DNA from: Leptonemataceae bacterium | Lineage (GTDB): Bacteria; Spirochaetota; Leptospiria; Leptospirales; Leptonemataceae | Length of the DNA stretch: 64,000 nucleotides | Direction: 5' to 3' | Assembly: GCA_965227295.1 (NCBI GenBank) | Contig: OZ245742.1 | Location: 2,528,001-2,592,000, forward strand | In this document: positions 54,075-64,000 of the stretch, piece by piece | How positions within the stretch are numbered: the first letter of the stretch is position 1 | Layout of the letters: every line of letters begins with the position of its first letter | Notes under the pieces: generated by a model | Seen by the model: the letters and a program-made list of their open reading frames with translations, nothing else | The model's database searches: none | What the model was told of the DNA's origin: nothing | Program-made: the position numbers and the translations under genes

Positions 54075-55472
54075 ATGAAAGTACATAAAGTCAGATCCGG
54101 CTACGACATCCCCCTCAAAGGACAACCTGATCCCTCCGCGGGCATTCAGGATGCTCCAAACCCGAAAACATACACAGTGCGGCCCGTCGAATTCGGCGCA
54201 CAGTTGAAACCGCGGCTCAAAGTTGAGACCGGCGACTCGGTGAAGATCGGCACCACGCTCTTCGTCGACAAACGCAATCCCGACGTATGCTACGCGAGTC
54301 CCGCCGCGGGAAAAATCACGGACATCCGGTACGGGCCGCGCCGTGTCATCGAAGCCATCGTCATCTCGCCGTCCGGTGAAGACGCCGAGCAGTTTCAGAA
54401 CTTTCGCTCGGGCGAAATCGCGAACCAGAAGCGCGATGATCTCGTGAAGCTGTTGCTTGAAGGCGGCATGTGGCCGTTTATTCGTCAGCGTCCGTACGAC
54501 ATCAACGCGAACCCGGAAGACACCCCGGCTTCCATCTTCGTGAACTGCATGGATACCGGTCCCCTGGCGCCCGATCCGGAAATCGCCCTGCGGGGCAAAC
54601 GTCCGGAGTTCGAAGCCGGCATTAATGCGCTGAAGGTTCTGGCCGGCGGGAATAAGATCCACGTCGTCATCAACGGCGGCAAGAAGCAAAGCCCCGACTC
54701 GGAGCAACTGTTCACTGGGCTCAGCGGCGTGGAGTACCACGCCTTCGCCGGCAAACACCCGGCCGGCCTGGTCGGCACGCACATCACCACCATCGATCCC
54801 ATCATCGGCTACGCGAACAACCGCAAGGTCATCTGGTATCTGAACGCCCGGGACGTAGTGAAACTCGGCAGTTTTCTTTTGGTAGGGCAGTATCCCACGG
54901 AAAACGTGATCGCGGTCGGCGGCCACGGTGTGAAAGCGGAGCGCCGGAAATACTTTCGCGTGCGTTCCGGCGCCGACATCGGCAGTCTGCTCGACGGTTA
55001 CCTTGAAGACGGCGAGCTGCGCATCATCAGCGGCAACGTGCTTACCGGTACGCAGATCAGCAAAGAAGAGGGCCTCGGCTTCTACGACAGCGTCATCACC
55101 GTCATTCCCGAGGGTCGCGAGCGACGCTTCATCGGCTGGATGCTGCCGGGCTTTTCGCGTTGGACCTGGTCCCGCGCCTACATGTCCGCGGCCGTCCCCG
55201 GTCGGCGCTACGCCATGGACACCAACAAGAACGGCGAAAAGCGCGCGTTCGTGAAGACCGGCGACTATCGCAAGGTCATGGGGATCGATGTGCTGCCGGA
55301 GTTCCTGGTCAAGGCCATTCTGGCCGAGGACATCGAACAAATGGAAGCCCTGGGCATTATGGAGTGTGCGCCGGAGGACTTCGCGCTGTGCGCGTACATC
55401 TGTCCGTCGAAGATCGAATTCACCGAGATCGTGCGCGACGGCCTGGAGATGATGCACAAAGAATTGGCCTGA
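54075..55472 (+). CDS. nqrA: Na+-translocating NADH:quinone reductase subunit A
   Basis: First gene of the cluster. HPAGLVGTHI, IISGNVLTG, EDFALCAYICPSK. Confidence 0.95.
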   Translation: MKVHKVRSGYDIPLKGQPDPSAGIQDAPNPKTYTVRPVEFGAQLKPRLKVETGDSVKIGTTLFVDKRNPDVCYASPAAGKITDIRYGPRRVIEAIVISPSGEDAEQFQNFRSGEIANQKRDDLVKLLLEGGMWPFIRQRPYDINANPEDTPASIFVNCMDTGPLAPDPEIALRGKRPEFEAGINALKVLAGGNKIHVVINGGKKQSPDSEQLFTGLSGVEYHAFAGKHPAGLVGTHITTIDPIIGYANNRKVIWYLNARDVVKLGSFLLVGQYPTENVIAVGGHGVKAERRKYFRVRSGADIGSLLDGYLEDGELRIISGNVLTGTQISKEEGLGFYDSVITVIPEGRERRFIGWMLPGFSRWTWSRAYMSAAVPGRRYAMDTNKNGEKRAFVKTGDYRKVMGIDVLPEFLVKAILAEDIEQMEALGIMECAPEDFALCAYICPSKIEFTEIVRDGLEMMHKELA

Positions 55473-55561
55473 CGACGGCGCGCACCGCTCTATCGCACTA
55501 ACCTTTGTTCTTGAAAACTTAGCGGCCCCGGTCGCTTTCCGTTGAAATCAGAGAAACGAAC

Positions 55562-56800
55562 ATGAAGTTCCTACAGAAACAACTCGAAAAGATGGACCCG
55601 CTCTTCGAAAAGGGCGGCAAGCTCGAAAAACTCCATCCCCTCTGGGACGCCCAGAGCACATTCCTGTTTACCCCGAAAGAGGTCACCGAGAAGGGTCCGC
55701 ACGTCCGCGATTCCATCGATCTCAAGCGGGTCATGATCACCGTGGTCATGGCGCTCATCCCGGTGGTGCTGTTTTCTTTCTATAATACGGGCTACCAGAT
55801 GGCCCGGGCCTACGGCGTCGAAGCGAGCCTGCCCTGGTGGCAGATGTTTATCAACGGAGCCATCACGAACCTGCCGATCATTCTGGTCAGCTACGCCGTC
55901 GGCGGTCTCTGGGAAGGCCTCTTCGCAGTCATTCGCCGGCATAAGATCAGTGAGGGCTTTCTCGTAACGGGCATGCTCTTTCCGCTGACTCTGCCGGCCA
56001 CGATTCCGCTGTGGCAGGTGGCCGTGGGCGTAAGCTTCGGCGTTGTGATCGGCAAAGAGGTCTTCGGCGGCACCGGCATGAACATCCTCAACCCGGCGCT
56101 CACCGGGCGGGCCTTTCTGTTCTTCTCGTTTCCGAAAGACATCTCGGGCTCCGATGTCTGGATCAAACATTACAACCCGTCCGCGTTCCCGTACCTCGAT
56201 AACTTCCTGCTGTGGGATCCTTCCTGGAAACTCGTCGACGGTTACAGCGGGGCCACGGCGCTGCTCCAGGCGGCGTCCACCGGCGCGGCGCAAAAACCGG
56301 TCGATGTCCTTACGAGCGGAGGCTACGCCCACTTCGACTGGTGGAATCTGTTTGTAGGTCTGGTGCCCGGCAGTATGGGCGAAACCTCGGCTCTCGTGGC
56401 GCTGATCGGCGCGGCGATTCTGATCCTCACCGGCGTCGGTAGCTGGCAGATCATAACGAGCTGCATTCTCGGTGCGGCGGCCATGGCGGGTTTCATGGGC
56501 ATCTTTACGGACGTCGGCCTGCCGGCGGTGCCCTGGCACTACCATCTCGTGATGGGCGGCTTCATGTTCGGCGCGGTCTACATGGCCACCGATCCGGTGA
56601 GCGCGGCGCATTCGGGCATGGGCAAGTGGATCTACGGTTTCTTAATCGGCGTTCTGTGCATCTTAATCCGGGTGTGGAACCCGGCCTATCCCGAGGGCAT
56701 GATGCTCTCGATTCTCTTTATGAACATTTTCGCGCCGCTCATCGATCATTACGTGGTAAAGGCGAACATCAACCGGAGGCTCAAACGTGCAACGGGGTAA
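55562..56800 (+). CDS. nqrB: Na+-NQR subunit B
   Basis: PHVRDSIDLKR, KEVFGGTG, FMN site SGAT, MATDPVS, PAYPEG. Confidence 0.96.
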   Translation: MKFLQKQLEKMDPLFEKGGKLEKLHPLWDAQSTFLFTPKEVTEKGPHVRDSIDLKRVMITVVMALIPVVLFSFYNTGYQMARAYGVEASLPWWQMFINGAITNLPIILVSYAVGGLWEGLFAVIRRHKISEGFLVTGMLFPLTLPATIPLWQVAVGVSFGVVIGKEVFGGTGMNILNPALTGRAFLFFSFPKDISGSDVWIKHYNPSAFPYLDNFLLWDPSWKLVDGYSGATALLQAASTGAAQKPVDVLTSGGYAHFDWWNLFVGLVPGSMGETSALVALIGAAILILTGVGSWQIITSCILGAAAMAGFMGIFTDVGLPAVPWHYHLVMGGFMFGAVYMATDPVSAAHSGMGKWIYGFLIGVLCILIRVWNPAYPEGMMLSILFMNIFAPLIDHYVVKANINRRLKRATG

Positions 56801-57680
56801 TGCTTATACATTCATCTTCGCGTTCATCGTCTGCATATGTTGCAGCGTGGCGCTGGCCTTCGCGGCCACCGGTCTGCGCGAAGCCCAGGACATCAGTGCG
56901 CGCCTGGACATCGTGAAGAACATCCTGCTCGTCGGCGGCTACGAACAAAAGGAACTCGATCGCATGGCCGCGGAGAGTCCGCAGCAGGTTCTGGAAATCT
57001 TCCGCAAAAACTTCGACGTCCGCCTCGTGAACGAGGACAAAGAGGAAGTGCCCCTGGAGTTTGTGAAGTCCGAGCTGAACAAGATCGGCTACCAGGACGA
57101 GCAGCTCGCCGCGATGCAGGCCTTTGAAATCGTCGACATCTTCAAAAGCAAGGTCAATCTTCTGGCGAAGGCAGCCGGTCAGTCCGTGGACGAGTACAAT
57201 CCCGGCCTCAGCCTCATCTACCTGCAGATGAGTTCGGGGGAAGGCGACGCGGAGCGAGAGGTCGTCGCTTACATTATTCCTGTCGAAGGTTACGGGCTGT
57301 GGGATATGGTCTATGCCTATCTGGCGCTTGAGGCCGACCTGGTCACAGTGAAGGATGTTGTGTTTTACTCTCATCAGGAGACGCCCGGTCTGGGCGGCGA
57401 AATCTCCACGAAGGCCTTCACCGATCAGTGGAAGGGCAAAAAGATCCTCGACGAGAACGGAGACCTTGTCAGTATCCAGGTGGTCAAGGGCGGCACGGAT
57501 GACGACAATCCCCACGGCGTCGACGGCATCAGCGGCGGCACCATCACCGGTGACAGCGTTACGAAGTTCTTGAAAGAGGACCTCGAACGCTACAACGCAT
57601 ACTTCAAGACCATCCGCGGCGGCGATAAAACCGGCGCGACGCAAGATCAGGCGGCCTTTGCCGCAGGAGAACGAAAATGA
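56787..57680 (+). CDS. nqrC: Na+-NQR subunit C
   Basis: GYGLW, ETPGLGGEI, VDGISGGTIT (FMN site). Confidence 0.94.
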   Translation: MQRGNAYTFIFAFIVCICCSVALAFAATGLREAQDISARLDIVKNILLVGGYEQKELDRMAAESPQQVLEIFRKNFDVRLVNEDKEEVPLEFVKSELNKIGYQDEQLAAMQAFEIVDIFKSKVNLLAKAAGQSVDEYNPGLSLIYLQMSSGEGDAEREVVAYIIPVEGYGLWDMVYAYLALEADLVTVKDVVFYSHQETPGLGGEISTKAFTDQWKGKKILDENGDLVSIQVVKGGTDDDNPHGVDGISGGTITGDSVTKFLKEDLERYNAYFKTIRGGDKTGATQDQAAFAAGERK

Positions 57681-58357
57681 GCGATACGGCAACAGTACCC
57701 GCGCCCCGGCAGGCGCAAAACGAACGCAAGCCGCTCTTCGGCAAGAAAGAGCGCTCCATCGTCCGCGATCCGTTGTGGGACAACAACCCCATCACGCTGC
57801 AGGTTCTCGGCATCTGTTCGGCCCTCGCCGTAACAACGCAGATGTCCACGACCATCGTCATGTGCCTGGCGGTGATCGCGGTGCTCTCGCTCTCGAACAC
57901 GATCGTTTCGTTTCTGCGGGACTTCATTCCGTCGAAGATTCGCATCATCGTCATGCTGGCAGTGATCTCATCGCTCGTGATCCTGGTGGACCAGATCCTT
58001 AAGGCCTACCTCTTCGAAATGTCGAAGCAGCTCTCGGTTTTCGTCGGTCTGATCATTACGAACTGCATCATCCTGGGCCGCGCCGAGGGTTTCGCCATGG
58101 CGAACAAACCCTGGCCGTCGTTCCTCGACGGAGTCGGCAACGCGTTGGGTTACTCGATCATCCTCATTCTTGTGGCCACCGGTCGCGAGATCCTGGGGAA
58201 CGGCACCTGGTTCGGCCTGGCTGTAATCCCGCAGTTTTTCTACGACATCGGTTACCAGAACATCGGCCTCATGAAGTTGCCCCCGGGCGCCTTCCTTATC
58301 GTAGGGCTTATCATCTGGGTCCAGCGTTCCATCTCGAAACAGTACGAAACGCACTAA
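57677..58357 (+). CDS. nqrD: Na+-NQR subunit D
   Basis: NNPITLQVLGICSALAVT, SVFVGLIITNCI. Confidence 0.96.
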   Translation: MSDTATVPAPRQAQNERKPLFGKKERSIVRDPLWDNNPITLQVLGICSALAVTTQMSTTIVMCLAVIAVLSLSNTIVSFLRDFIPSKIRIIVMLAVISSLVILVDQILKAYLFEMSKQLSVFVGLIITNCIILGRAEGFAMANKPWPSFLDGVGNALGYSIILILVATGREILGNGTWFGLAVIPQFFYDIGYQNIGLMKLPPGAFLIVGLIIWVQRSISKQYETH

Positions 58358-58390
58358 TCTACGTTACCTGAATACTAAGAGATAAACCTT

Positions 58391-59002
58391 ATGAATCTCG
58401 TAAACATCGCAGTCCAATCCGTCTTTGTCGAAAACATCCTGCTGGCGTACTTCCTCGGGATGTGTTCATTCCTGGCGGTCTCCAAGAAGATCGACACCGC
58501 CGTCGGCCTCGGCTTTGCCGTGGTCTTCGTGAACGGGATCACCGCCCCGGTGAACTGGCTCATCAATCATTATCTGCTGAACGACGGCGCCCTGGCCTGG
58601 GTCGGCCTGGCCACGGTGGATCTTTCGTTCCTGCGCTTCATCACCTATATCGCGGTAATCGCGGCCATGGTGCAGCTCGTGGAGATGATCATCGACAAGT
58701 TCTCTCCGACGCTCTACGCGTCGCTGGGTATCTTTCTGCCGCTGATCGCGGTGAACTGCGCCATCCTGGGGACCTCGCTCTTCATGGATACCAAAGGCTA
58801 CAACCTGGCCGAGTCCACCGTCTTCGGCCTTTCTTCCGGCCTCGGCTGGATGCTGGCCATCGTGGCGCTGGCGGCCATTCGCACGCGCATTCGTTATTCG
58901 GACGTGCCCCCGGGCCTGCGCGGCCTCGGCATGGCGTTCATTCTCACGGGACTCATGGCGATCGGTTTCATGTGTTTCGTGGGCATCAAAATGACCGAAT
59001 GA
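58391..59002 (+). CDS. nqrE: Na+-NQR subunit E
   Basis: [40 protein letters not shown]. Confidence 0.96.
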
Positions 59003-59050
59003 CGGACACTTTCGAAACGGCCTTTTCTTAACTATTACGGAGCAAATATT

Positions 59051-60283
59051 ATGAGCGGAATCGCAATCGTAGGACTCAGTGTTGCCGTCTTCACGTTCGT
59101 GATCATGGGACTGGTGACCATCATTACCCAGGCGGAGAAGCGCCTGGTCGCCCAGGGCGACGTGAAGATCAACATCAACGGCGACGAGGAGAAGTCCATC
59201 ACGGCGCCCGCCGGATCCACACTGCTGACGACGCTCTCGAACTCCGGCCTGTATCTGCCGTCGGCCTGCGGCGGCGGCGGGACCTGCGCCATGTGCAAGT
59301 GCCAGATCTTCGACGGCGCCGGGGACATTCTGCCCACCGAAGCGGGGCACTTTACCCGCAAAGAAATCAAGGAAAACTGGCGCCTGTCGTGCCAGGTAAA
59401 GGTCAAGGGCGATCTGGAAATCGGCGTTCCGGAAGAGGTGCTCAGCATTCAGAAGTTCACCTGTACCGTGCGCAGCAATCACAACGTCGCGACGTTCATC
59501 AAAGAGCTCGTCCTGGACATCGACGACGGCAAGGAAATGGACTTCGAGGCCGGCGGTTACATTCAGATCTACGTCCCCGAGTACGACATCGACTTCAAGA
59601 ACTTCGACATCGAAAAAGAGTACCACCCGGACTGGGATCAGTTTAAGTTGTGGGACCTGAAAGCGCGCAACGACGAGGAGATCTTCCGCGCCTATTCCAT
59701 GGCGAACCACCCGGCCGAGGGCAACATCGTTATGCTGAACATCCGCATCGCCACGCCGCCGCGGGGCATGGACGTGCCTCCGGGGATTTGTTCCAGCTAC
59801 GTGTTCAATCTGAAACCCGGCGACAAAGTCGAGGTGAGCGGACCCTACGGTGAGTTCTTCGCCAAAGAAACCGAGCGGGAAATGTGCTACATCGGCGGTG
59901 GTGCCGGCATGGCCCCGTTGCGCTCGCACATCTTCGATCTTTTCCATACCAGGAAAACGAACCGCAAGGTCACCTACTGGTACGGCGCACGCTCGCTGCG
60001 GGAGATGTTCTACGAGGACGACTTCCGCAAAATCGAAAAGGAATTCGACAACTTCAAGTTCCACGTGGCGCTCTCGGACCCGCTGCCCGAGGACAACTGG
60101 GAAGGCCCCACGGGCTTCATTCACCAGGTGGTCCTGGAAAACTATCTCAAGAACCATCCCGATCCCACGGAGATCGAGTACTACCTGTGCGGCCCGCCGC
60201 TCATGCTCGACGCCGTGCAAAAAATGCTCTACGACCTGGGCGTGGAGCGCGAAATGATCGACTTCGACGACTTCGGTAGTTGA
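59051..60283 (+). CDS. nqrF: Na+-NQR subunit F
   Basis: [39 protein letters not shown]. Confidence 0.97.
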
Positions 60284-60305
60284 GGGAGAATAGGAATCAG
60301 GACTA

Positions 60306-60417
60306 ACACCGAGGACCGAGAGACCGAGGTTTCCTGGAAGGGCATTCTTATTAGCAAGGCCGCGCGCAAGCTATGAATGCTCTCCGTTTTCGCCTCGCAA
60401 GACTCGGTCCTCGGAGT
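60306..60417. repeat. Inverted-repeat element, family B copy 5
   Basis: ACACCGAGGACCGAGAGACCGAGG / CCTCGCAAGACTCGGTCCTCGGAGT. Right arm overlaps the apbE 5' end. Confidence 0.7.
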
Positions 60418-61488
60418 CTATTCCTTCTTTTCCTCGCGTGCGCGTTCGCCTGCAAGCCCGCGGACGAATCGCTTACGTTGAAGGGCTACGCCCTCGGCAC
60501 CACCTATACCGTTAAGATCTACCCGCACGAAGTTAGCGAAGACGAAGCCTCGCTGCCTCCCGAAGACGAACTGCGTTCCGAAATCGAAGACGTCATTGCC
60601 GGCATGAACGCGGCCATGTCCAACTGGCATACGGACAGCGAAATCTCGCGATTCAATGCCCTGGAGGCCCCGGCAACCATCGAAATCTCGCCGGCCTTCG
60701 CGCGAGTCTTGGAAGCATCGCAGGAGATGCACCGACGTTCCGGCGGCGCTTTTGATCCGGGCCGCTCCAGGCTCTTTGATCTGTGGGGTTTCGGCGCCGA
60801 ACAAAAAGAGGACGCCGTGCGCAGCGTTCCGGACCAGGCGGACATCGAACGCCTGTTGCAAAACAGCGGCCTCGCATACGTGCGTCTGGAAATCAAACCG
60901 CATCCGGAAAATCTCGACAGTCACAGCCTCATCACGCTGCACAAAGAGCGCGACGATGCCGGGTTAAACGTGAGTGCTCTCGCGAAAGGTTACGCCGTGG
61001 ACCTGGTATTCGAGCGACTGCAGGAACACGGCGCCCGGTACATGATGGTGGAAATCGGCGGCGAGGTTCGTACCGGACCGGCGCATCCGCAGCGTGGAGG
61101 TTTTCACATCGGCATCGACGAGCCGCGGTACGACGGTCGCCGTTCGCTCTACGAGGTCCTCGAAGTTTCGGACGCGGCCGTGGCGACGAGCGGCAACTAT
61201 CGCAACTACTTTCGCGGCGACGACGGCCGGTTGTATTCGCACATCCTGGATCCCCGCACCGGTCGGCCGTCGGAGAGCGATGTCGTGTCGGCCACGGTGA
61301 TCGGCCCGGCCTGCATGATCGCCGACGCCCTGGCAACGACGTTGCTGGTGCTGAGCGAAGACGAAGGACTGGCCTTGATCGAAGCGATGCCGGAGTACGA
61401 GGCGTTGTTGTTAATCAAAGACGGCGAGAAGTTACGGGAAGTGCAAACGGCGGGGATGGCGCGGTTCAGGAATGGCTCGGGTCCGTAG
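60373..61488 (+). CDS. apbE: FAD:protein FMN transferase (lipoprotein)
   Basis: SEISRFN, AKGYAVD, EIGGE, ATSGNYRNY, SHILDPRTG, ADALAT. Confidence 0.95.
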   Translation: MNALRFRLARLGPRSLFLLFLACAFACKPADESLTLKGYALGTTYTVKIYPHEVSEDEASLPPEDELRSEIEDVIAGMNAAMSNWHTDSEISRFNALEAPATIEISPAFARVLEASQEMHRRSGGAFDPGRSRLFDLWGFGAEQKEDAVRSVPDQADIERLLQNSGLAYVRLEIKPHPENLDSHSLITLHKERDDAGLNVSALAKGYAVDLVFERLQEHGARYMMVEIGGEVRTGPAHPQRGGFHIGIDEPRYDGRRSLYEVLEVSDAAVATSGNYRNYFRGDDGRLYSHILDPRTGRPSESDVVSATVIGPACMIADALATTLLVLSEDEGLALIEAMPEYEALLLIKDGEKLREVQTAGMARFRNGSGP

Positions 61489-61501
61489 TTCCGGTGTGCC
61501 C

Positions 61502-61767
61502 TGAAGCTTGAGGTAAGTGCCCGGGAGGGAAAGTTAAGGGAAGTATGGGTACGGCTGGTTCCAGCCGGCGAACGGAGGTCGTGCCGGGGGACGTGGTAAG
61601 GCGGACCGGAACGGCGTCTTCGCCGCAAGAGACGCTGCCGAAGCTGAGTCGCTCTCCCGGCGTCCGGGTCGATGTGGACAATCTTAACAAAACGAAAAGC
61701 TACAACTCCCGCGAGCCGTAGCAAAATGATTCCCTTTACAATTCCTGAGCCAGGCTCTGTAGCTTCA
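61502..61767 (+). ncRNA. Candidate structured non-coding RNA, family unknown, strand tentative
   Basis: Multiple nested complementary segments in a ~315-nt gap between convergent genes (see findings). Confidence 0.45.
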
Positions 61768-61804
61768 CAGCTCCTGCCATGATTCCGAGGGCTCCCCGGG
61801 ATCG

Positions 61805-62056
61805 TCACATCAACCGCGACTTTTGCAGTGCCTGCTGTAGCTTGCTGTAATGCTGCGGCTCTTCTTGTTCGGCGTCGCACTTGTTCGGATCGCCGCCGCA
61901 GATGCTGCACGATTCGTCGCCGCCGCGGGTGATGGTCCCGTTCGCGGCGAGGCCGCCGCAGGAACCCTTCACGGGCCGCCCGAACATGGCGCCGATCGCG
62001 ATGCCGGCCATGCAAATGCCGAAGAGGGCGAGGGTGAGCAGCAGAATCTCGGTCAT
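61805..62056 (-). CDS. nqrM: Na+-NQR maturation protein
   Basis: Single TM helix, then KGSCGG...CSICGGDPNKC (4 Cys). Next to nqrF/apbE. Confidence 0.85.
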   Translation of the reverse strand: MTEILLLTLALFGICMAGIAIGAMFGRPVKGSCGGLAANGTITRGGDESCSICGGDPNKCDAEQEEPQHYSKLQQALQKSRLM

Positions 62057-62109
62057 TCTAATAAGTTAGTAAGATCGCGCGGAAAATCAAGTCTTTTGCC
62101 GCGCCGTGC

Positions 62110-62146
62110 AAAAGGAGCGGGCGCCGATTTTTCGGCCGCCCGCTCC
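62110..62146 (-). terminator. Intrinsic terminator downstream of the tuf paralog
   Basis: Minus strand GGAGCGGGCGGCCGA-AAAA-TCGGCGCCCGCTCC followed by TTTT. Confidence 0.7.
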
Positions 62147-62163
62147 ACGTTATACGCGGGATC

Positions 62164-63384
62164 TCAGTCCGGCGTTTCGCTGATCACCCCGCGACCCACG
62201 GTGCGGCCGCCCTCACGGAATGCGAAGGCGAGGCCCGCCTCGATGGCCACGGCGGTTTCCAGGTCCACATCGATCAGAATCGATTCGCCCGGGAGCGCCA
62301 TGTCGATGCCTTCCGGCAACTGCACGGAGCCGGTGACGTTCGTCGTGCGGAAGTAGAACTGCGGCCGGTAACCGTTGAAGAAGGGCGTATGTCGTCCGCC
62401 TTCCTCTTTGCCCAGAACGTAAACTTCCGCTCGAAAGAACTTACGGGCCCGCACGGAACCGGGCAGGGCCACGACCTGGCCGCGCCGCAGCGAATCTTTC
62501 TTTACACCGCGGAGCAGCAGACCCACGCTCTCGCCGGCCCGGGCCGTATCGCTTTCCTCGTGAAAGCTCTCGATGGCCGTCACCGTCGTGCGCCCGGTCT
62601 CACCGAAGCCGACGATCTCCACCTCGCGCCCGCTTTGCAAACGGCCGCGTTCCACACGACCGGTCACCACGGTGCCGCGACCCGGAATCGTAAGCACGCC
62701 TTCGATGGCCATCAGAAAGTCGCGGTCCAGGTCCCGCACGGGATCCGGCACGTGAGCTTCCAGGGCTTCGAGCAAGCGCACGATCGCGGCGAAACCCAGC
62801 TCGCTTTCCGGGGCCTCGCCGGCCGCCTCACGAACGGCGAGCAACGCCGAGCCGTAGACAATGGGCGTGTCCGCGGCGAAACCGTACTGCTCGAGCAACT
62901 CACGAATCTCTTCGCTCACGAGATCGATCAATTCCTCGCGCTCGTCCGGGTGAATCGCGTCGGCCTTGTTCAGAAAGACGACGAGATTCCGCACGCCCAC
63001 CTGACGCGCTAACAGCACATGCTCGCGAGTTTGCGGCATAGAACCGTCGTCCGCGGAAACCACCACGATGGCGGCGTCGAGGGACTGAGCACCGGCGACC
63101 ATGTTCTTTACGTAGTCGGCGTGGCCCGGGCAATCGACGTGGGCGTAGATTCTACGCGCGGTTTCGTAGCGCTGATGCGATACGTTGATCGTTACGCCCT
63201 TCGCACGTTCTTCCGGCGCCGAGTCGATGTCCTCGTAACGCACGGCGCGGTTCAGGCCGCCGTAGAGTTTCGCGGTGACCTGGGTTAGAGCGGCACTCAG
63301 CGTGGTCTTGCCGTGATCCACGTGTCCGATCGTACCCACGTTCACTCGAATCTTGTTTTCGTTTTTCAGAGCTTTGATGCTCAT
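62164..63384 (-). CDS. tuf: Elongation factor Tu, divergent paralog
   Basis: [76 protein letters not shown] before ATG 63384. Confidence 0.93.
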
Positions 63385-63445
63385 CGTTTTCACCTCGTTA
63401 TAGTTTGATCCGCCTGAGCGGATGGCGTGGGTTGTCACGGGCACG

Positions 63446-63480
63446 AAAAAACCCCCTCGCACCGGATGGTGGAGGGGGCT
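63446..63480 (-). terminator. Intrinsic terminator in the 5' leader of the tuf paralog (attenuator)
   Basis: Minus strand AGCCCCCTC-CACC-ATCC-GGTG-C-GAGGGGGTT running into a T6 tract, ~60 nt upstream of the tuf ATG. Confidence 0.8.
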
Positions 63481-63515
63481 TCGCGCAGGTACTATGACGT
63501 TATGATGCTACAAAC

Positions 63516-63608
63516 CTACAATCGCGCAAGCCCTCCCCGCGGGTCGCCTTGTTCCTGTTGTTCGCCGCTTATGCCGGCGAAAATCTTGTTGAAAATTCCG
63601 GAGAACAT
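63516..63608 (-). CDS. Putative 30-aa leader peptide MFSGIFNKIFAGISGEQQEQGDPRGGLARL
   Basis: ATG at 63608 to TAG at 63516, ending 35 nt before the terminator. No obvious SD. Confidence 0.45.
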   Translation of the reverse strand: MFSGIFNKIFAGISGEQQEQGDPRGGLARL

Positions 63609-63688
63609 CGATTAGATTTGACGAAGAAAACGCGCACCTTCGTGAAACTTTTTGTGAAAATCGTGCGCGTTCTTTTCGGAGTAACTGC

Positions 63689-63988
63689 ATGCTGCCGCCC
63701 ACATTCATCGCTTCGCTCATTGCCATCGGCGTTTTGCTGGTGTTGATCCTCACGTACGTTCTGGTCTCGCGGGAAGTGGAACGCCGCCGCCTCGATCGAG
63801 AGCGGGCTATCGCCGCGCAGCGTAAGAAAGAGCTCCTGGCCACCGAAGTCGACGAGCCCGCCGTGCCCGCGTCCATTTCCAAAAGCGAACACCAGGAAAT
63901 GATCGAAAACGCCCAGGCCATGGTCAAAGAAGACCCGGAGCGCGCGGCGAAACTCGTGCGTCACTGGCTCGACGACGGGGATCGGTAG
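63689..63988 (+). CDS. Small membrane protein with a FliF C-terminus-like motif
   Basis: N-terminal TM, charged helix, ends AQAMVKEDPERAAKLVRHWLDD. Confidence 0.7.
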   Translation: MLPPTFIASLIAIGVLLVLILTYVLVSREVERRRLDRERAIAAQRKKELLATEVDEPAVPASISKSEHQEMIENAQAMVKEDPERAAKLVRHWLDDGDR

Positions 63989-64000
63989 ATCGAGCACGCC

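Follow-up and report, generated by a model that had tools for sequence, protein, structure and literature searches.

A putative ribosome-mediated transcription attenuator upstream of an accessory EF-Tu gene in a Leptonemataceae bacterium

The window analysed here, a stretch of 64,000 nucleotides from a Leptonemataceae bacterium (genome G000), carries near its end a gene for a second, divergent EF-Tu, preceded by a short upstream open reading frame (uORF) together with an intrinsic terminator. An earlier note on this DNA had described a 30-codon uORF, a segment at 63538-63523, its pairing target at 63487-63471, a terminator and tuf, and all of these coordinates proved correct. Read in the direction of transcription, the features are as follows.

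63620..63623, minus strand: candidate -10 element (CGTC) of an ECF-type promoter; transcription would start at the uORF ATG or a few bases before it
63516..63608, minus strand: uORF of 30 codons, ATG to TAG, last sense codon TTG, without a Shine-Dalgarno (SD) sequence (from sequence)
63561..63598, minus strand: two small hairpins within the first half of the uORF (predicted fold)
63523..63538, minus strand: antiterminator segment, uORF codons 24-29, with an SD-like G-rich core (duplex with the terminator 5' arm)
63485..63519, minus strand: spacer hairpin that would place the antiterminator beside its target (predicted in both conformations)
63471..63487, minus strand: antiterminator target, overlapping the terminator 5' arm (pairing and folding)
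63446..63482, minus strand: intrinsic terminator, a G+C hairpin whose 5' arm is C-rich, followed by a run of six U (folding)
63391..63396, minus strand: SD of the EF-Tu gene (from sequence)
62164..63384, minus strand: accessory EF-Tu, 406 aa, monocistronic (TIGR00485, three EF-Tu domains)
62110..62146, minus strand: hairpin with a short U run that closes the EF-Tu gene, before nqrM (from sequence)

The terminator hairpin itself spans 63482-63448, its U tract ends at 63446, and tuf begins 62 nt further on; 37 nt separate the uORF stop from the terminator core. No letter differs across 63119-64000 in contigs from two DNA runs of one study, either of which may be the source sample of the window sequence. 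Two longer minus-strand frames also span the leader (60 aa from 63690, and an open frame ending at 63569), and we do not favour them because the promoter would have to sit inside the divergent gene. On the plus strand, positions 63689-63988 encode a stand-alone 99-aa protein resembling the C-terminus of FliF, which is free-standing in some relatives too; a promoter-like site for this gene (63589-63618) overlaps the uORF start on the opposite strand. An Na+-NQR operon with apbE occupies 54075-62056 of the window, with nqrM on the opposite strand.

The description of this gene in the earlier note as a backup EF-Tu holds, as it is a second copy: the housekeeping tuf of the genome lies separately in the str-S10 cluster (C1:574896-576092), and the window protein, which stands alone, is 62% identical to it. 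It scores 548.8 bits against TIGR00485 (cut-off 522.4), has three domains, retains the P-loop, T61, D80, H84, NKxD and SAL, and is on these features an EF-Tu. Its domain II carries D216G, F218L, G257A, M260S, R262H, K263E and N273S (E. coli mature numbering), with T93A and Q97S as further changes; the changed positions are nearly fixed among 85 housekeeping sequences, with the exception of R262 (65/85). The remodelled domain II positions are ones that we take to line the amino-acid and GE2270A/pulvomycin sites, while Y160 and the kirromycin positions that were checked are unaltered. To judge from its sequence, this EF-Tu has kept its GTPase core intact while its amino-acid/inhibitor pocket has been remodelled. 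Because the GTPase motifs are kept and the pocket is changed, the protein most likely substitutes for the main EF-Tu when the latter is inhibited or limiting, as EF-Tu3 of Streptomyces reportedly does. Bottromycin is a poor candidate for the benefit, since resistance at D216, a bottromycin-resistance position, is described as recessive (10.1101/2025.08.17.670399).

Paralogues of this kind occur in only two of 42 family genomes, G000 and G016, and the protein closest to the window EF-Tu (P0002) is 88% identical. In a tree that included G016 (42 rows, LG+G4, bootstrap not fully settled), the three paralogues formed one clade (support 100/99) nested within Leptospirales EF-Tu (87/99), making the G016 protein a probable orthologue of the window EF-Tu; all three also carry the three-residue insert of Leptospirales EF-Tu. 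In a 77-row tree lacking G016, the window protein formed a long branch that belonged to neither group. It fell outside the accessory clade of Myxococcota, described below, in both trees and has only two of 37 derived residues in common with it. An AU test did not reject a joint clade of the window and Myxococcota paralogues (p 0.29). Independent duplication of EF-Tu followed by convergence is the history we favour from these sequences. Further searches for relatives gave 593 metagenome matches, mostly housekeeping tuf with a best identity of 77%, which were used as controls; a plasmid tblastn returned 86 records, every one below 60%, and a 50%-cluster search added no closer relative. Two genomes of the same genus have a different gene beside nqrM and no EF-Tu paralogue.

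The earlier note had found no clear SD before the leader ORF, and indeed none precedes the uORF. A leaderless transcript is likely the simplest explanation, and leaderless initiation is suggested by the promoter-to-ATG spacing in Myxococcota leaders. In the window, CGTC ends 11 nt upstream of the uORF ATG, and this motif occurs within 50 nt before the uORF in 9/11 Leptospirales leaders versus 465/1993 ordinary genes (23%). It may be likened to the -10 consensus of ECF promoters; no conserved -35 was found in the Leptospirales leaders and no clear promoter before the window uORF. The same eight bases around CGTC as in the window leader lie ~20 nt before the start of rtcB (G000:C1:1037960-1039194), with neither a uORF nor a terminator upstream; by eye, neither rtcB nor the ABC-F gene of G000 has a leader of this design.

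The window uORF uses 14 of the 20 amino acids, with six scattered glycines and no run of control codons, and its codon adaptation is ordinary (24th percentile), a combination that fits a general sensor of elongation. An amino-acid-specific attenuator of the trpL/hisL type was rejected because the uORF lacks a single-residue run, and the idea of a leader that samples all 20 amino acids fails on the same count of 14. Inspection of the uORFs of the window, G016, the tRNA arrays and Myxococcota revealed no common motif of the kind expected for a SecM/ErmCL-type arrest peptide; since the leader peptides have no common sequence, a general elongation sensor is favoured over an arrest peptide. A nucleotide search of G000 for a second copy of the leader gave matches of 23 nt or less only, and no alignable homologue of the window leader was found.

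The terminator, called strong in the earlier note, folds at -26.1 kcal/mol (z -4.42), with none of 200 shuffles equally stable. It is absent from the list of a simple terminator scanner, which we attribute to its bulged stem. An antiterminator that is mutually exclusive with it overlaps the uORF: an imperfect 13-bp helix with one mismatch and one bulge, whose duplex energy of -26.2 kcal/mol bears out the competing pairing proposed earlier (p 0.005 with 200 shuffles, p 0.017 with 300) and which, folded as one strand, has a z of -2.46 (4/200 shuffles as good). As in attenuators of the whiB7/vmlR type, an intrinsic terminator stands between the putative promoter and the gene, with promoter-like motifs only upstream of it.

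Folding with a ribosome footprint reproduces, as a prediction, the attenuation logic that the earlier note had put forward. Before the terminator 3' arm has emerged, the 5' arm is predicted to be held upstream with a probability of 0.87 when the leader is ribosome-free or the ribosome is on codons 1-18, and to be sequestered at 0.16-0.41 with the ribosome on codons 21-30. In the complete leader the terminator prevails regardless of the ribosome (arm held upstream 0.10 and 0.01); with an equilibrium that favours the terminator, only a kinetic switch can work, and read-through would require a kinetic trap. In the window leader by itself, 4/60 shuffles equalled the contrast between codon 3 and the last codon. 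An anti-antiterminator of the trp kind, at the start of the uORF, is weak in the window leader (-11.0 against -26.4 kcal/mol), and folding suggests that its counterpart functions in most Myxococcota leaders. With so weak a protecting helix, failed initiation should also induce the window gene; loss of the uORF ATG would therefore give read-through in the window leader, in contrast to shut-off in most Myxococcota leaders.

We read the leader, with a probability of about 0.8, as a ribosome-mediated transcription attenuator acting on the accessory EF-Tu gene, in which a stall before about codon 19 leads to read-through. Transcription would begin at the uORF ATG or immediately upstream of it. A ribosome in pace with RNA polymerase would cover the G-rich segment while on codons 20-30, allowing the terminator to fold and leaving tuf off. 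If the ribosome were slow, absent or stalled on codons 1-18, the G-rich segment would be free to pair with the C-rich 5' arm while the 3' arm is still to be transcribed, and tuf would be reached by read-through; the conformations in this scheme are predicted, and the regulation would follow from them. The signal sensed would be a general failure of elongation, and if the paralogue restores elongation it would exert negative feedback on its own leader.

A catalogued riboswitch, T-box or r-leader was rejected as no Rfam model matches: there was no relevant match in 58000-64000 at E<=1, and seven related loci gave tRNAs only. The lack of Rfam matches also weighs against a switch without any ribosome on the uORF, in which the balance between helices would be shifted by a ligand or by a protein (some RNA-binding regulator or EF-Tu, for instance). 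The two uORF hairpins and the spacer hairpin could serve as binding sites, and Salmonella tufB is reported to be autoregulated (PMC6735719). However, no sequence or hairpin is conserved outside the switch core, and what is conserved is an open frame whose stop keeps its position, so that we regard such a regulator as the least probable of the accounts weighed here.

The same design recurs in this genome. Among 24 terminators of G000 with a C-rich 5' arm, seven have a uORF whose last 45 nt include a G-rich core, and these strict-class leaders are confined to tRNA genes and the window tuf: five sites lie in two tRNA arrays and one precedes a tRNA-Arg. The two arrays (L162, G000:C1:4547528-4559530) are inverted copies of 26 and 15 genes (41 in all), ~82-90% identical, in an island of lower GC (47-55%); each has a bidirectional leader region, and between the arrays lie a long tandem repeat of a 13-nt unit and a group II intron reverse transcriptase. 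The lone tRNA-Arg(UCU) (L160, G000:C1:285687-286300) has a VWA-domain gene upstream of its uORF-terminator leader and a ThiF-family gene after it. A further leader, passed by a looser filter described below, precedes an RNA ligase (PF09414; L161, G000:C1:3964857-3966050) and consists of a uORF of 23 codons with a strong terminator; its antiterminator duplex is not significant. An EF-G paralogue in pieces (L194, G000:C1:117789-119216) is preceded by CGTC and a 20-codon uORF ending GTG-TAA, in a leader that is structured and has no clear U tract. As the design stands before the accessory tuf and also before spare tRNA genes, slowing ribosomes would probably lead the cell to bring in a reserve set of translation components. 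One leader design on both tuf and the tRNA arrays suggests a backup-translation response that is distributed, each transcription unit having a sensor of its own.

Across the family, the terminator pattern matched seven of 42 genomes (a reversed control gave one match). Outside G000 there are seven distinct hairpins, two without a uORF and five with one; the five precede tRNA arrays (G001, G002 and two in G008) or the G016 paralogue. A tRNA-like gene in the G002 array (L183:2817-2892) drew a four-base anticodon call (ctaa). The G016 leader comprises a 36-codon uORF whose stop lies 29 nt before a matching terminator, with an antiterminator at p 0.003, and, the switch core apart, its sequence shows no recognisable likeness to that of the window leader. 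The uORF stop falls 23-37 nt before the hairpin in every one of the 11 Leptospirales leaders, and the antiterminator duplex is significant in eight of them and not in the other three. The antiterminators prefer their own terminators (mean residual -3.1 kcal/mol, permutation p 0.0007 over 11 leaders, two of which are close homologues). The alternative pairing invoked by the earlier note is therefore kept in homologues: leaders of the G016 paralogue and of tRNA arrays, unrelated in sequence, preserve a leader-specific complementarity.

This cognate pairing, together with the tight stop-to-hairpin spacing in 11/11 leaders, is difficult to reconcile with a terminator that acts as a fixed throttle or marks the end of a small RNA, with an incidental uORF and alternative helix and with control at the (ECF) promoter only. 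The finding that strict-class leaders occur only before tRNA and EF-Tu genes and the frame-specific codon bias of the Myxococcota analogues point the same way. Such an arrangement would suit the missing SD, the lack of peptide conservation and the dominance of the terminator at equilibrium, and loose look-alikes are common: a relaxed uORF-plus-duplex filter, whose hits are mostly noise, passes 89 of 498 terminator-like hairpins in G000. We consider it very unlikely.

Analogues in another phylum were found by scanning 185,579 genomes with an EF-Tu domain II protein motif alone, which yielded 47 loci (L033-L079), nearly all named Myxococcota or Deltaproteobacteria; a housekeeping tuf was also present in five of five such genomes tested. 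The same terminator core as in the window precedes the Myxococcota paralogues. Among 45 Myxococcota loci with enough upstream DNA, which are kin to one another, 41 have a terminator, 38 a uORF as well and 35 a C-rich arm in addition, as against 5, 1 and 0 of 97 housekeeping tuf loci, an easy control because these genes lie inside operons. That 35/45 of these paralogues show every element, uORF and terminator included, supports the reading of the earlier note, ribosome-mediated attenuation. Using a strict terminator pattern, five Myxococcota genomes gave three matches, two of them at the EF-Tu paralogue, and no wider regulon. The domain II signature recurs in an EF-Tu encoded on a very large viral contig from IMG/VR (L195, 618,736 bases), where TTGACA, an ORF of 29 codons and two tRNA-like genes lie upstream of the gene and inspection by eye showed no terminator.

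In 42 Myxococcota leaders, with the uORF start picked by eye in 22, predicted arm sequestration averages 0.20 ribosome-free, 0.73 when the ribosome occupies codon 3 and 0.27 when it occupies the last codon, compared with 0.36, 0.36 and 0.32 for shuffled uORFs in the same three states, and a switch score above 0.4 is reached by 22/42 leaders versus 5.4% of shuffles. Duplex energy alone is significant (p<0.05) in 6/38, and no cognate pairing preference was detected among the Myxococcota leaders (p 0.26). The best sign that these uORFs are translated is the frame bias of TCA, which is suggestive of in-frame selection: 104 occurrences in frame versus 5 and 2 in the other frames, or 94.5 per thousand in frame versus 0.1 in the adjacent tuf genes. 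The peptides are 25% serine, with serine runs. Upstream, TTGAC lies 34-44 nt before the ATG in 20/42 leaders and a GTCA..CGTC motif is present in 19 others, forming two mutually exclusive promoter classes; a promoter-like motif thus stands at leaderless-type spacing in 39/42, and an SD-like sequence in 1/43.

The in-frame selection of TCA implies that the 5' half of these uORFs is read, which argues against a sensor made up of the SD-like antiterminator core and a terminal start-stop pair (TTG-TAG in the window). There, free or post-termination ribosomes parked on the pair would hold the gene off, so that the leader would measure ribosome availability or termination instead of elongation along the 30 codons. 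A start-type codon stands directly before the stop, behind GGAGG, in four of the six distinct G000 leaders; the penultimate uORF codon alternates between ATG and GTG in an Archangiaceae-type group, and the uORF before the broken EF-G paralogue has an ending of this kind too. Yet the pattern was noticed post hoc, none of five leaders of relatives ends so, only 14/42 Myxococcota uORFs have a start-type codon among their last three, and GGAGG is required anyway by pairing with the terminator arm. We therefore think this sensor very unlikely.

The mechanism class is already known. Leaders of whiB7/wblC and of ARE ABC-F genes (vmlR, lmrC, msrD, vgaA) are described as combining a uORF, a premature intrinsic terminator and an antiterminator (PMC10274678; PMC12421871), and there, as proposed for the window leader, stalling gives read-through. 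uORF sequence is reported to vary between species and its composition can be biased, towards alanine in whiB7 and, in the Myxococcota leaders, towards the serine codon UCA. Unlike in the whiB7 type, the targets here are a paralogue of a core elongation factor and tRNA arrays, each target has its own leader with no transcription factor between sensor and gene, the predicted stall range of the window leader extends over ~18 codons, and by prediction a window leader left untranslated would give read-through by default. A search of the openly available literature listed no report in which a uORF attenuator sits immediately upstream of tuf or of a tRNA array.

Comparable genes are controlled differently, as far as the cited texts describe them. 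Streptomyces tuf3/EF-Tu3 (actEF-Tu2) is reported to be stress-expressed and resistant to EF-Tu inhibitors including GE2270A (PMC4342817, PMC7157823, PMC12309360); compared by description, it is likewise a divergent extra EF-Tu alongside a housekeeping copy. Unlike the window tuf, it is reportedly activated by WblC at the promoter, and the window protein differs from EF-Tu3 in having the Leptospirales three-residue insert; in the best tree, whose rows did not include tuf3, it groups with Leptospirales EF-Tu. As a clearly distinct EF-Tu duplicate, a survey of the translational GTPases names the actinobacterial subfamily only (PMC4342817). The Anabaena trn operon is a silent tRNA array induced by translation stress and co-regulated with an RNA ligase (PMC10272220); its control is ascribed to the repressor TrcR, and the string 'attenuat' is absent from the main text of that paper. 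In Salmonella tufB, EF-Tu output is tied to transcription termination, as here (Brandis 2016, cited in PMC6735719), although that system is described as Rho-dependent and acts on a housekeeping copy, whereas the window has an intrinsic terminator and a separate uORF.

Taken together, the two groups allow a wider and more tentative reading, which we put forward as possible rather than probable. At least two lineages, Leptospirales and Myxococcota, may have duplicated EF-Tu independently and converged on the pocket changes M260S/A and R262H and on the same leaderless uORF attenuator, which would read the supply of ternary complex. In Leptospirales this would amount to a backup-translation regulon without a regulator, comprising EF-Tu, tRNA arrays and perhaps an RNA ligase; in Myxococcota the leader would respond above all to UCA, a rare serine codon, which would hint at a specific natural attack that targets tRNA-Ser or EF-Tu. 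Production of the paralogue would limit itself, since the protein would speed ribosomes along its own leader and so shut its gene off.

The window and Myxococcota genes add further divergent EF-Tu duplicates, and their leaders would be a direct RNA-level sensor for turning them on and would form a short feedback loop between the speed of elongation and the supply of EF-Tu. They would also connect an accessory EF-Tu with tRNA arrays, a kind of locus for which the Anabaena repressor is the main known example of control. Finally, the leaders could be used as reporters for the natural inhibitors or tRNA-damaging agents that accessory EF-Tu proteins answer.
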